Virus record (IMG/VR): IMGVR_UViG_2861452123_000001 | Coordinates: 13,139-77,138 of that record | Length of the DNA stretch: 64,000 nt | Direction: 5' to 3' (one strand) | From: a virus | Part shown: positions 7,715-33,330 of the stretch, in pieces | Numbering within the stretch: the first letter of the stretch is position 1 | How the letters are laid out: every line of letters starts with the position of its first letter | Notes under the pieces: generated by a model | Database searches by the model: none | Told to the model about the DNA's origin: nothing | The model's input: only the letters and a program-made list of their open reading frames with translations | Translations under genes and position numbers: made by a program

Positions 7715-7788
7715 GCACCCCGTCGAGGATTCGAACCTCAACCACCTGGATCAGAGCCAGGCATCCTGCCAGTTAAACGAACAGGGTA
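7715..7788 (-). tRNA. tRNA-Gln(CTG)
   Basis: CCTGG-CTCTGAT-CCAGG arm; canonical T loop. Confidence 0.88.
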
Positions 7789-13041: not shown

Positions 13042-13638
13042 CTACGCCCATGAGCGAACCTCGGCTTCGAACGCGGGGTTGCATAGGGCCGCAGGCGACC
13101 GCTTATCGCGGAGTAGCGACACGATGAAGTCGCCGTCGATTGGGTCAGCGCCGGGGAGTTCCTGGCCCTGCCATTCGAGATAGAGCGCCTTGGCTGCGAC
13201 GAGGGACGACCGGTTGAGTCCAGCCTGGCAGTGCACCAGGACGGGGCCGGACTCGCGGCAGAGGTTGACCCAGCGAGCGAGCGCGTCGACTTGCTCGTAG
13301 CCCTGGTCCTCGGCGTCGTACATCTGCACGTACGTCTCGGACAGCACGTCATGGTTGATCGTGTACCGCTCCCACGGGTACAGCGACACCAGATGCTTGA
13401 TGTGCTTCGGGAGCACCAGGCCGGTTTCGCAGCCGCCCTGCCACAGGTTGTGTCCGATCTCGGAGATGTACGGCATGTCGAATGGCGTCCACCCATGGCG
13501 AGCCACGCCGCTGAGGCGCTGTGTCTGCGGGTCGGTGGTGATGTCGATGGCGGTGTGGTCGCCGTTGGACGCACGCCACTCGCGAGTAGTCGTTGGGTCG
13601 GTCACGACGAGGGTGATGTCCTCGGTGCGGAGCGCCAT
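13042..13638 (-). CDS. Dual-specificity (CX5R) phosphatase
   Basis: LVHCQAGLNRSSLV P-loop. Confidence 0.9.
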   Translation of the reverse strand: MALRTEDITLVVTDPTTTREWRASNGDHTAIDITTDPQTQRLSGVARHGWTPFDMPYISEIGHNLWQGGCETGLVLPKHIKHLVSLYPWERYTINHDVLSETYVQMYDAEDQGYEQVDALARWVNLCRESGPVLVHCQAGLNRSSLVAAKALYLEWQGQELPGADPIDGDFIVSLLRDKRSPAALCNPAFEAEVRSWA

Positions 13639-28675: not shown

Positions 28676-28707
28676 CCCTGTAATCCAACTCCCGCGCCTG
28701 CCAAGCT
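28676..28707 (+). promoter_or_regulatory. Rightward phage-type promoter (CCCTGTAATC-N16-CAAGCT)
   Basis: Motif 28676-28685; hexamer 28702-28707; ATG 7 nt later. Confidence 0.65.
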
Positions 28708-28714
28708 CATTCGC

Positions 28715-29527
28715 ATGAGCACAGACATCCGCGAGAACTACGAGGGGCTGGTTGACGGCGAGCGCGTCGTCACCGCGTACCGCGCCTTCGCAGAGCCCGA
28801 CAAGCCGTACTGCATCACCCTCGACCTCGGGGACCAGATCGTGTCCGGTGCATTCCGACCGCTGGTCGCCGACGAAGACTTCACCGCCGAAGAGGCAGAG
28901 TCGTTGAACCGCGCCAACATCATCGACTGGGTGAGCGTCCTGACGGACCTGATCGAGAAGGCGCAAGCTTGGGACGACTTCGTCGCGGAAGTCGAGGAGG
29001 CCGAACAGTACCCCGACGAGTACTACGGGGCCGAGTTCCTGTCCGGCGGCGGCGTCATCACGGACACGTTCGACCGTTCCGGCGCAGTCGATCTGGACGC
29101 ACCCGCCACCACGGCCTGGTCGGTCGACAACCTCGGGTACAACGAGATCGATTCGGTGTGGATGGATCGCCAGGGCGACCGCTACAAGCACGTGAACGGT
29201 GTCTGGTACATCCAGGACTGCGACGACATTCTTGGAGATTGGGATGAGATCGCCTCCAACTCCGACCTCCTGACCGACTACGGCCCGTACACCACGACGC
29301 TCGCCGACCGTGCGCCGCGTCAGGCGAAGAGCCTCGGCGAAGACGAGCGTGACGCCGAATGGTCCTTCACGGCCGACGACGGAACGGTCTTCATCTACCG
29401 CTGGAACGGCGAGACCTGGGAGGGCAAGTCCTCCGCGTTCGGCGACGGCGACGTCTGGGTGTCGATCAGCGCGGACGGACCCGTCATCCGCAACACCCCC
29501 AACTACCTCATCGAAATCATCAAGTAA
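28715..29527 (+). CDS. Acidic hypothetical protein (probably leaderless)
   Basis: MSTDIRENYEG...; codon use becomes phage-typical at 28715. Confidence 0.8.
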   Translation: MSTDIRENYEGLVDGERVVTAYRAFAEPDKPYCITLDLGDQIVSGAFRPLVADEDFTAEEAESLNRANIIDWVSVLTDLIEKAQAWDDFVAEVEEAEQYPDEYYGAEFLSGGGVITDTFDRSGAVDLDAPATTAWSVDNLGYNEIDSVWMDRQGDRYKHVNGVWYIQDCDDILGDWDEIASNSDLLTDYGPYTTTLADRAPRQAKSLGEDERDAEWSFTADDGTVFIYRWNGETWEGKSSAFGDGDVWVSISADGPVIRNTPNYLIEIIK

Positions 29528-29540
29528 CCCCGAAGGAATC

Positions 29541-29876
29541 ATGAGCAAGAACAACACCATCAACGGGACACCGGGACTCAAGCGGATCGTCCCCGCAGGC
29601 GAGCCGATCTTCGGCCTGGGCGCGAAGGTCACCGGCCGTAACCTCGCCGCCATCAGCTACATCGTGTCGCTGGAGGCTGAGCGCCGTGGCGTCCCGCTGG
29701 GGATCGAAACCGTCTTCGCGGCTACCGGCGAGCTGGTCTCGATCACCGTCAAGGACGACACCAAGGCAGAGGACTTCGTCCTGGAGGTCGGCGATGCAAT
29801 CGTCCTGACCCCTCAGGCCCTGGAGGCTCAGGTGCTGCCGGTGAGCCTGTACAACCAGGTGTTCCGCGAGCTGTGA
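29541..29876 (+). CDS. Hypothetical protein
   Basis: GAAGGA RBS. Confidence 0.8.
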   Translation: MSKNNTINGTPGLKRIVPAGEPIFGLGAKVTGRNLAAISYIVSLEAERRGVPLGIETVFAATGELVSITVKDDTKAEDFVLEVGDAIVLTPQALEAQVLPVSLYNQVFREL

Positions 29877-30166
29877 CCCTGCAGACGTTCACCCACAACC
29901 CGACCAAGGTCGGAGCCATTCAGGTGGCCCGACCCTGGTCAGGTGTGGAGCGTTCCGTTCCAACCGCCCGCCAGGTGAAGACCGGCGCAGGTGGACTGGC
30001 GTGGTTCGTGGTGTCCACCCACGGCAGCCTGGAGACGCAGCGTGCGTACGCGGGTGACTGGATTGTCCGGCACCCCAACGGTTCCCATGAAGTTCTGACC
30101 GACGACCAGTTCCAGCTGTATTACGGAGATAGCAAAGATGTCGACACCGACCCTGCCGAGGACTGA
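29873..30166 (+). CDS. Hypothetical protein (GDWIV-type)
   Basis: AYAGDWIVRHPNG...F...Y. Confidence 0.75.
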   Translation: MTLQTFTHNPTKVGAIQVARPWSGVERSVPTARQVKTGAGGLAWFVVSTHGSLETQRAYAGDWIVRHPNGSHEVLTDDQFQLYYGDSKDVDTDPAED

Positions 30167-30446
30167 CTTCGACACCGACATCATGTCGGCGGTCGACGGC
30201 GCGTTCAAGGAACTCGACTGTTGCAGTCAGCGCAAGGAACAGCTGGCCTGTGGCGGCGACATCGCCGGATACCAGGAGTACCACGACTGCATCCAAGGCT
30301 GGCTGTGCAAGACCCACTGGGACCAGGCACTCCAGTTCCTTCCAGTGTGGAAGGAACGCATCCGCACCAACGGCAGCATGGGATGCACTCACTGCCTCAA
30401 CCGGTTCGATGACATCCGCAAGCTAGTGAGGCTGACCTCGGTATGA
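30138..30446 (+). CDS. Cys-rich putative Zn-binding protein
   Basis: CxxH and CxxC motifs. Confidence 0.7.
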   Translation: MSTPTLPRTDFDTDIMSAVDGAFKELDCCSQRKEQLACGGDIAGYQEYHDCIQGWLCKTHWDQALQFLPVWKERIRTNGSMGCTHCLNRFDDIRKLVRLTSV

Positions 30447-30658
30447 CCAAGATCCTGATCGCCGCAGCAGCGGCTGCCGCCACCCTCGGACTGTCGGCGT
30501 GCAACCCCGGTGAGCCCGTGCCCACACCCGCCAACCCCGGCGCACCGGCCAGCTGCGCATTCGTGAACGCCCCGAAGAGTGGCTTCGTCCCTGGCGGCGA
30601 TCTACGCCTGGACCCCGGCACTCACTTGGGTCCACGTATCGGGCTGCCGTTCCAGTGA
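30443..30658 (+). CDS. Small lipoprotein
   Basis: Signal peptide with LSAC lipobox. Confidence 0.75.
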   Translation: MTKILIAAAAAAATLGLSACNPGEPVPTPANPGAPASCAFVNAPKSGFVPGGDLRLDPGTHLGPRIGLPFQ

Positions 30659-31305
30659 GCGCCATTCTCCGCGATGTGATCTGGGATGACCTCGACATCG
30701 ACTACCTGCTGACACAGTCCTACAAGGACTTCCACGCCAAGGGCCTCGACTACGTGTGCCTGCACCGTGACGCGGGCCTGACCCTCAAGGCGTACTTCTT
30801 CGCCGAAGGTATGGACTCGCAGAAAGCGGGCGAGGTCGTCAACCCGCACGACCACCGGTACAACTTCGTGACGCAATGCATGTCCGGCGTCATCGAGAAC
30901 CAGTGGTACCGCACCCCGCCATGCTGGGATCCGATGTCGGACGACCCGATTGCTGATGAGTGCGGCGAGGTTTACGAGACGCACCTGTGGTACACACCGC
31001 TCAACGGTGGTGTCGGGTTCACCAAGGACGGTGGCTGGATCCTGCAGCGATACAAGACGTATCAGTTCGCCCCCGGCCAGCAGTACTGGATGTCGGCACC
31101 CGAGATCCACACCATCCGCGTGGTCAAGCCCGAGACGTGCATCGTGATCGCACAGTTCGAGGACGTGGTCCCGCTCGACCAGCCGACAGTCACGTTCACC
31201 AAGAGCAAGTTGCCGCCGTCCCTCGAAGGGCTGTACGGCACGTTCACCGCCGACCAGCTCGTCAAGCGAATCGGCCTACTTCGAGAACTGCAGGAGCAGC
31301 TCTAA
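30655..31305 (+). CDS. Cupin / cysteine-dioxygenase-like metalloprotein
   Basis: NPHDHRYNFVT...PEIHTIRV. Confidence 0.7.
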   Translation: MSAILRDVIWDDLDIDYLLTQSYKDFHAKGLDYVCLHRDAGLTLKAYFFAEGMDSQKAGEVVNPHDHRYNFVTQCMSGVIENQWYRTPPCWDPMSDDPIADECGEVYETHLWYTPLNGGVGFTKDGGWILQRYKTYQFAPGQQYWMSAPEIHTIRVVKPETCIVIAQFEDVVPLDQPTVTFTKSKLPPSLEGLYGTFTADQLVKRIGLLRELQEQL

Positions 31306-31496
31306 TGGGCACCAGCGTCAAGCGTGAGGTCTCGCTCAGCAGCCCGATGACTCTCGGTGAGCTGCGCGAGTTCTACGACCTGTGCCGCGACATGGACATA
31401 CCGCTGTCAGCGCAGTTGTCCGTGACAGTTATCAAGGGCTACAGCGACTTCCGCGAGTCCTGGCCGGACGGTGTCACGATCACGGCTCGACCATGA
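31305..31496 (+). CDS. Hypothetical protein
   Basis: TAATG-coupled 63-aa ORF. Confidence 0.6.
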
Positions 31497-31894
31497 ACCG
31501 GCTACAGAGCGCCACGGACACCTTCCGTGAACTGTGGACGTACGCGACCATCGCTCTGATCCTCGGTGCCACCGGCTACGCCGTGTTCGAGAACAAGAGC
31601 TGGTGGGACGGACTGTGGTGGGCCATCGTGACCGCCGGGACAGTCGGCTACGGCGACCAGTACCCCGCCACGGTCGGCGGTCGCATCGTCGGTATCGCGC
31701 TGATCGTGTTCTCCGTGTTCTTCGTCGTCCCCCTCATCACAGCCCGCATGGCCAGCCGCCTCATCGTGAACGACGACGCGTGGACCCATGAGGAGCAAGA
31801 AGAGATCAAGAGCGACATCGGGTTCGTCCGTGAGTACGTCGACCGGCTCCCGCCCCGATGCGGGCATGGCGGTGATCCGGCGAAGTGCCGATGA
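31493..31894 (+). CDS. KcsA-like two-TM potassium channel
   Basis: TM1, [22 protein letters not shown] filter, TM2 ([11 protein letters not shown]). Confidence 0.92.
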
Positions 31895-32486
31895 TGAGCG
31901 GCGTGATGGTCGCCTACGACGGTGATGCAGACCTCTTCGTCTACCGGGTCTTCGTCCCTGACTATCAGGAGCGGTTCGGATACTTGCACGACGGCACCCT
32001 GCAGACCGGAAGGGATTGACCAGTGGCCGAGACCAAAGAAGAGATGGACGCGCAGACAGGCGGATTACACCCTGCCGAGATCTGCGGCGAGGACTGTTCG
32101 GGGTGCTGCGAGGAGTGGGAGTGGAAGTGACAACGCCTACACCTGCCGTCGCCTGATGTGGAGCCAGCTTGGGGACGGCACCTACGTGTGCGACGTGTGC
32201 GGCCTACCCGTGCGTCTTTGGGTGGACATCGGAGCATCGTGCCCGTTCGGGTGCGACGTGACGTAGGGAGATGACATGACCTGTACCGAACCGGACGAGG
32301 ACGGCGACTGCACGCATGAGATCAGCAGTTACGAACCCGGCCTGTGCCTGCATTGCTTGCACACCTACGGAATCGCCCGTCAGATGGGCAAGTCCACCGT
32401 CCCCGGCCTGTGGATGTGCATGATGTGCGCCCACGGCGTCGGCTAACGGGACGCGTACTTATCGGCACAACACAACAGGAGGAATC

Positions 32487-32852
32487 GTGAACGTTCGCAA
32501 TTGGTTTCGGCGCAGGCCACCAAGCAATCTGGTCGCTCACGCACGTCGTGAGTTGGATCTGATCGGAGAAGAGCCTGACGTGATCAAGGGCTACCTCAAG
32601 GTGATCCAAGCGTTCGCCGATATGGGGCACTCTGGTGGGTCAGCAATGGTCGCTATCCCGACTATCAGCAGGCTGTTGCGTTTCGAGAACTTGGCTCCGC
32701 TAACCGACGACCCGGACGACTGGATCGAGGTTGGGTACGGCATGTGGCAGAACCGCCGCTGTTCCCGCATGTTCTCGGAGGACGGTGGCAAGTCGTATAC
32801 CGACGTGGACGACCGCGAGAAGGTCGTGCATTTTGCCGAGTCAAGCGCCTAG
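32487..32852 (+). CDS. Hypothetical protein (GHSGGSA family)
   Basis: GGAGG RBS; HARREL...GHSGGSA...PLTDDPDDW...WQNRR. Confidence 0.8.
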   Translation: MNVRNWFRRRPPSNLVAHARRELDLIGEEPDVIKGYLKVIQAFADMGHSGGSAMVAIPTISRLLRFENLAPLTDDPDDWIEVGYGMWQNRRCSRMFSEDGGKSYTDVDDREKVVHFAESSA

Positions 32853-32869
32853 CTGACATAGGGACTGGC

Positions 32870-33061
32870 ATGCACGAAGTACCTGACTGCTACGTCTGCG
32901 GCGACGGCATCGAACAGATCGGCGGGGGCTGGCGGCACATTGACGACAGCATCAGTGCGGAGGGCGAGCGAGTCGTCTCGACGTGCTACTGGGGCAAGCC
33001 CTACGCGCCGTCCGACAACCGCAATCCGCGGTTCGCAGACTTCGAAAAACACCTGACGTAA
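32870..33061 (+). CDS. Small Cys-containing protein
   Basis: CYVCG; 63 aa. Confidence 0.55.
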   Translation: MHEVPDCYVCGDGIEQIGGGWRHIDDSISAEGERVVSTCYWGKPYAPSDNRNPRFADFEKHLT

Positions 33062-33267
33062 GGAGATTGACGTGGAAGGCATCGCAATTGGCCTTGCGTG
33101 CTGGGTGCTCGCCGCCGTGGCCTTCATGGTCGGGCGAATGACGGCGCCGCGTGCCCCGCAGGATGTGTTCTGCTGCGCGTACAAAGTGGGCCACCCTGGG
33201 CCACACGTCCCGCCGCTGGGCTGACAGAAGGCGGCGTTACTAAACGGGGCTCACAAGGCCCATAGAG

Positions 33268-33302
33268 AAACCCCGACCCCCTCACAAGGGGGGCCGGGGT
33301 TT
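33268..33302. terminator. Bidirectional terminator between convergent arms
   Basis: AAACCCCGACCCCC-TCACAA-GGGGGGCCGGGGTTT. Confidence 0.85.
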
Positions 33303-33330
33303 CGTCGTTCCTGGAGCCAATAAGAGGGCG

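Follow-up and report, generated by a model that had tools for sequence, protein, structure and literature searches.

What a tailed phage would do with a potassium channel is the question raised by one short gene in the window, which is the whole 64,000-nucleotide stretch analysed here (positions 13,139–77,138 of IMG/VR record IMGVR_UViG_2861452123_000001). A sequence-only reading had described the gene as encoding a phage-borne minimal K+ channel with TM1, a pore helix, an intact TVGYGD filter and TM2, and this description agrees with the 133-aa open reading frame, the matches to PF07885 and PHROG 14690, and the structural model. The channel is not new as a gene type, however, because mycobacteriophage homologues were already listed in 2018 (PMC6163359). 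The remark that phage K+ channels are little studied holds as well, since a 2026 paper reports no functional studies of them (PMC13715775).

The channel gene and its predicted product

An in-frame GTG at position 31382 would extend the open reading frame to 170 aa. This longer start was rejected, and the 133-aa call is taken to be right, because the homologues align from residue 1 and because the ATG overlaps the stop codon of the upstream gene. The GC content at third codon positions is 0.85, similar to that of other phage genes, and the codon bias is that of the neighbouring genes. Furthermore, dN/dS against two relatives is 0.24–0.32 by a simple counting method, indicating that the gene is under purifying selection; the conserved upstream gene has an equal value (0.32). 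The interval is a real gene under selection, not a chance open reading frame.

The protein matches PF07885 (Pfam Ion_trans_2) with 52.5 bits, well above the cut-off of 22.5, and PHROG 14690 with an E-value of 2e-34 (119 bits, residues 3–115 of 122, nearly the full profile). Only pore families match the protein, among which neither an RCK/TrkA domain nor an S1–S4 sensor was found, while NCBIfam models score far under their cut-offs and PADLOC returns no match. Profile matches and structural model together make it very probable that the gene encodes a pore-only K+ channel subunit.

An AlphaFold2 model of the channel, built from 87 homologues, has a mean pLDDT of 88.7 and contains the helices listed in Table 1. 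In both profile and model, the pore helix is flanked by two membrane helices, and the TxGYGD signature is accompanied by an aromatic cuff, with GYGD invariant in the 87 homologues. The closest solved relatives by sequence are the KvAP, KvLm, KcsA and MthK pores, and the model overlays pores of these types with a root-mean-square deviation of 1.4–1.7 Å over 86–87 residues (KcsA, ~1.5 Å over 86 residues). By analogy with the family, four copies should assemble into a KcsA-like homotetrameric pore in the host membrane. The C-terminal helix (residues 99–118), which the sequence-only reading had not mentioned, is predicted by the model and likely forms a cytoplasmic four-helix bundle.

The inner helix departs from the usual pattern. 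Specifically, the hinge position, which lies 11 residues after the glycine that opens the inner helix, is occupied by glycine in 120 of 122 generic channels, whereas glycine is found there in 8 of ~123 subfamily members and the prophage channel has Ser74. A proline six residues past the hinge position is present in 109 of ~123 subfamily members (Pro80 here), and residues E33, E101 and Q102 are nearly invariant across the subfamily. Covariation between E13 and R85 is weak, a hint at most. The lack of a hinge glycine, the proline near the bundle crossing, and the conserved N- and C-terminal motifs suggest that the channel is probably gated unlike KcsA.

Table 1. Features of the channel gene and its surroundings (window coordinates)
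Feature	Coordinates	Strand	Basis or remark
Repeat CCTGTAATC	28677..28685	+	29 nt ahead of first island gene; same place in Nanosmite
Predicted lipoprotein gene, lipobox-bearing, 71 aa, PHROG 542	30443..30658	+	Neighbour only
Conserved cluster M island gene, PHROG 8313	30655..31305	+	Channel slot follows it
63-aa gene, Nanosmite gp49 homologue	31305..31496	+	Stop overlaps channel ATG
K+ channel gene, 133 aa, ATG to TGA	31493..31894	+	2TM/P architecture
Conserved N-terminal motif, residues 7–14, ahead of outer helix	31511..31534	+	Homologue conservation
Outer helix TM1, residues 11–33, near-invariant E33 at end	31523..31591	+	Model, conservation
Pore helix, residues 37–48, WW aromatic pair and V46	31601..31636	+	Alignment, model
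Selectivity filter TVGYGD, residues 50–55	31640..31657	+	Sequence
Inner helix TM2, residues 61–91, Ser74 and conserved Pro80	31673..31765	+	Alignment, model
Subfamily C-terminal motif (E101-Q102) and amphipathic helix 99–118	31769..31846	+	Conservation, model
Tad3 (type I Thoeris inhibitor) homologue, same operon	32487..32852	+	PF25185, 125.7 bits, cut-off 27
Strong hairpin between island and convergent NrdH/lysis genes	33265..33306		z = −4.25

The gene lies in a cluster-M-like prophage

The window sits in a 161-kb contig of an 8.6-Mb genome, in which a lower-GC segment of ~83.5 kb (contig 67.6–151.2 kb) constitutes a prophage with genes for a terminase, portal, capsid, tape measure, lysins, helicase, 17 tRNAs and a serine integrase. 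The structural genes, lysins, integrase and att arms identify the element that encodes the channel as a tailed phage. The prophage ends are near-perfect inverted arms splitting one host gene, the frame of which is restored on joining, indicating that the prophage is integrated. The arms are located at positions 67617 and 151171 of contig C19, outside the window; the split host gene encodes a membrane protein of ~443 aa, acyltransferase-like by eye, and the integrase gene is found 8.6 kb inward of the left end.

The DNA matches of the prophage are cluster M phages (~70–75% identity), and its gene order is the same as in Nanosmite and prophiT49-2. On sequence grounds, namely a length of ~80–84 kb, a tRNA array, an integrase-distant attP and the gene order, the prophage is cluster-M-like (MabI, Mclasvirinae); an integrase-distant attP was already known for the cluster M group (PMC9934374). 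A second tRNA array, comprising 15 genes, is present at 7747–10701 of contig C6 of the same genome and perhaps belongs to another mobile element. The channel gene is ~39–45 kb from either prophage end; in M. abscessus lysogens, prophage genes are mostly silent, and the expressed cassettes are often near the att ends (PMC8092301). The host genome encodes Kdp, Kup, TrkA domains and two K+ channels of its own, and a search for a TrkA domain in the prophage found none.

A variable slot in an operon with an early-type repeat

The channel gene belongs to an island of mostly abutting genes (28715–33224, +) that runs opposite in direction to its flanks. The island is the normal reverse mid-genome block of cluster M and not a foreign insert. 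The channel gene is joined to both neighbours, its start codon overlapping the upstream stop (−4 nt) and its stop codon the following start (−1 nt), a layout of translational coupling within an operon. The sequence-only reading had placed the channel in a divergently transcribed island with a lipoprotein; the opposite direction and the lipobox-bearing gene are both as described, the latter separated from the channel gene by two genes. As a conserved partner the lipoprotein was rejected, since it matched no other channel locus fetched, and the Tad3 homologue, 0.6 kb downstream of the channel, was rejected for the same reason.

Several other features of the island were observed. The best GenBank matches of the Tad3 homologue (PF25185) are in Arthrobacter phages, with no match in Mycobacterium phages; several tiny Cys-rich open reading frames lie around it (32023–33224, +), one of which, near 32127–32266, has no clear start codon. 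For the conserved gene ahead of the channel slot, the leads are cupin- or thiol-dioxygenase-like, and its counterpart in prophiT49-2 is annotated as an oxidoreductase. A nucleotidyltransferase gene (Nanosmite gp53, prophiT49-2 gp63) is absent from this island at 29527–29541. The hairpin beyond the last island gene is a probable terminator.

GenBank cluster M phages have no match to the channel, indicating that it is dispensable. The slot after the conserved gene holds unrelated genes in Nanosmite and none in prophiT49-2, and two metagenomic cluster-M-like contigs carry a 66–68% identical channel directly after the same conserved gene. Because the slot contents differ among cluster-M-like relatives in this way, the channel can be regarded as optional, and it is located at the end of the island that varies.

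The prophage contains 12 copies of the repeat ahead of the island, CCTGTAATC, whereas the remaining 8.5 Mb of the genome has 3; copies within the window are at positions 478, 4562, 9880, 14904, 17035, 27863, 28167, 28425 and 28677. Like-oriented copies head the leftward early (replication) operons and the tRNA operon, at the same places in Nanosmite, suggesting that the island operon shares early-lytic control. The copies occur in two contexts, either 30–45 nt before operon starts or often followed by a GGTCAG element, and these contexts may represent promoters of the phage and binding sites for a repressor. A sigma-70 scan of the island region, a weak test for mycobacteria, returned no promoter.

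Distribution of the channel subfamily

Members of the subfamily score above 105 bits on the subfamily profile, and generic channels score 80 or less. At 50% identity, 167 representatives reach an E-value of 1e-30, and nearly all of the 150 listed are stand-alone proteins of ~120–180 aa; the prophage channel is likewise a stand-alone, full-length PHROG 14690 match in the ~120–170 aa range. The carrier phages are large, with hosts in Actinomycetota and Pseudomonadota; named carriers are Myrna, Phabba, and phages of Streptomyces, Aeromonas, Pseudomonas and Acinetobacter, with genomes of 97–235 kb. Members are also carried by ~30 IMG/VR contigs of up to 517 kb and by a Mycolicibacterium S2-37 prophage. 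A phage-exclusive family was rejected, given that Pilimelia, Sphingomonas, Phenylobacterium and others carry copies on their chromosomes, and since such members exist the family may serve ordinary physiology. Phages account for 35 of the 39 channel groups, a ratio biased towards phages because a single protein served as query for the genome collection whereas viral sequences were scanned with an alignment. A subfamily member was found in just one genome among 400 others drawn from the host's family, and likewise in 1 of 400 drawn from its phylum; plasmids gave no match at an E-value of 1e-12. A search that finds the integrase of this prophage gave no tyrosine or serine integrase hit in five named carriers, which disfavours a lysogen-specific role.

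In a quick tree, the subfamily is split from the outgroups with a support of only 78, and the prophage channel is placed with the two metagenomic cluster-M-like copies and the Mycolicibacterium prophage copy (support 91), away from the host's own channels. Recent capture from the host channels was rejected on the basis of this separation and of the identity between host and prophage channels, which is 33% over 48 aa.

No partner gene is fixed across the 39 channel groups, and no recurring anti-defence neighbour was recognised among them. A two-gene block that ends in a LemA-family gene, and whose first gene is often intein-bearing, precedes the channel in eight phage groups (for example L173:3099–6155, L174:5799–8444, L182:3503–6450 and L107:4818–6336), and block and channel possibly form a three-gene membrane cassette. 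In Myrna (L005:4001–8038), the channel gene overlaps the start of a block encoding Prs, an ATPase and NadV, and in Aeromonas phage LAh_8 (L178:3953–5894), it overlaps a DUF1190 gene, which is followed by a glutathionylspermidine synthase gene.

Possible functions of the channel

Tailed phages have no lipid envelope. Because the virion has no membrane, the channel must be made after infection and cannot play the entry role proposed for Kcv. Judging by the shared repeat and the translational coupling, the operon that carries this optional gene is probably active early in lytic growth. With an assumed 200–400 mM K+ inside the cell, the K+ equilibrium potential (E_K) is about −140 to −220 mV at 0.1–1 mM outside K+ and about −60 to −117 mV at 5–20 mM. 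An extra K+ conductance would pull the infected cell towards E_K; K+ would enter at membrane potentials more negative than E_K, and in a depolarised cell it would leave and thereby repolarise the membrane. In this manner, K+ and membrane potential could be buffered during phage growth. We tentatively prefer the interpretation that the channel provides an accessory K+ conductance in early lytic growth and so draws the infected cell towards E_K, with a likelihood that we place slightly short of even. The membrane depolarisation suggested by the sequence-only reading would be expected at higher outside K+ only, as a K+-selective pore pulls the cell towards E_K.

The same reading suggested superinfection exclusion, in which the membrane potential is reduced by the open channel and later phages fail to inject their DNA, during lytic growth or in the lysogen. 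A small membrane protein in a variable slot would suit this role, exclusion genes occur in lytic phages too, and E_K at 5–20 mM outside K+ would depolarise an energised cell. However, E_K at low outside K+ is about −140 to −220 mV, PADLOC gives no match, and the channel gene, in an operon headed by the early-operon repeat, has no promoter of its own and is remote from the att ends, the usual location of the genes that mycobacterial prophages express (PMC8092301). With five integrase-free carriers in addition, superinfection exclusion is possible and not favoured; we consider it distinctly unlikely. Lysogenic conversion, with the channel aiding K+ uptake or osmotic-stress tolerance of the lysogen, is highly improbable: this copy and the Mycolicibacterium S2-37 copy do lie in prophages, and chromosomal family members exist, but the gene is inside a probable lytic operon, there are the integrase-free carriers, and the K+ uptake of the host is complete, its Kdp, Kup, TrkA domains and two channels leaving no missing route for the prophage channel to fill.

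A further possibility is counter-defence, in which the channel would repolarise or otherwise rescue cells depolarised by a pore-forming defence effector of the Hailong HalA type or others. The patchy presence of the channel is typical of anti-defence genes, a Tad3 homologue lies in the same operon, and the Myrna channel is directly ahead of the Prs and NadV NAD-salvage block; moreover, depolarising defence effectors exist (PMC13434031). Against this, Tad3 and other anti-defence neighbours do not recur at the other channel loci, and prolonged K+ efflux would be expected to empty the cell, so that we regard counter-defence as unlikely. The more specific proposal, in which a K+ channel subfamily that is enriched in phages and distinct in its gating is expressed early to cancel membrane-depolarising defences, is less likely still; no description was found of an anti-defence protein that is an ion channel. 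The sequence-only reading also suggested that the channel could counter K+-sensing defences; a literature search found no paper on such a defence, and the sole hint of an anti-defence role is the Tad3 neighbour, which is not conserved beside homologues. It is also very unlikely that the protein is cargo that does not conduct or is nearly neutral in effect, or that it serves as a decoy by mixing with subunits of the host channels. The missing hinge glycine and sporadic presence would fit this, as would the failure of many look-alike viral channels to conduct, exemplified by four mimivirid candidates, of which just one conducted when tested (PMC7650704); yet the filter is invariant across the family, the gene is under purifying selection, and the low identity to the host channel over a short stretch speaks against a decoy.

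This copy lends itself to a clean test: the channel gene occupies a variable slot in a group of phages whose laboratory representatives lack it and propagate on M. smegmatis, and a protein of 133 aa suits cell-free synthesis and bilayer recording. The outcome would tell whether phages tune host membrane potential after infection, and the missing hinge glycine is of interest to channel biophysicists. Finding the gene is in itself unsurprising, its type having been catalogued.

Comparison with known systems

HalA of Hailong (PMC13434031) is a tetrameric ion channel at the phage–host interface, as the prophage channel is predicted to be. Unlike HalA, the prophage channel has no pentapeptide-repeat or DNA-binding extension, has an intact K+ filter, and gives no PADLOC match; no HalB-like nucleotidyltransferase partner is present next to it, and the locus does not have the make-up of Hailong. 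Chlorovirus Kcv and other algal-virus channels (PMC7650704) are small viral 2TM K+ channels too, and, like them, the prophage channel is probably homotetrameric. Compared with Kcv, the prophage channel, which is known from its sequence, represents a separate lineage (17–28% identity in structural matches), has a cytoplasmic tail, and comes from a tailed phage without a membrane.

The KcsA, MthK, KvAP and KvLm pores have the fold, WW pair, TVGYGD filter and C-terminal helix in common with the prophage channel. It carries neither an RCK domain nor a voltage sensor, and it differs from these pores in the serine at the hinge-glycine position, in Pro80, and in a glycine before the filter threonine. 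Furthermore, the pore-helix position that we take to be Glu71 in KcsA numbering is a valine.

The PHROG 14690 channels of Myrna (gp260), Phabba, Acinetobacter phage ME3 and Pseudomonas phage ventosus are 33–41% identical to the prophage channel and share its two membrane helices, GYGD filter and C-terminal region, all scoring above 105 bits. In 2018, Greiner et al. catalogued these four genes as phage K+ channels and judged the sporadic phage channel genes, Myrna's included, to be non-essential (PMC6163359). Unlike these named copies, the prophage channel resides in a temperate cluster-M-like prophage, and it does not group with Myrna in the quick tree. It is an additional, intact and correctly identified member of the catalogued phage K+ channel family, and the present analysis adds its cluster M setting, operon context and gating features.
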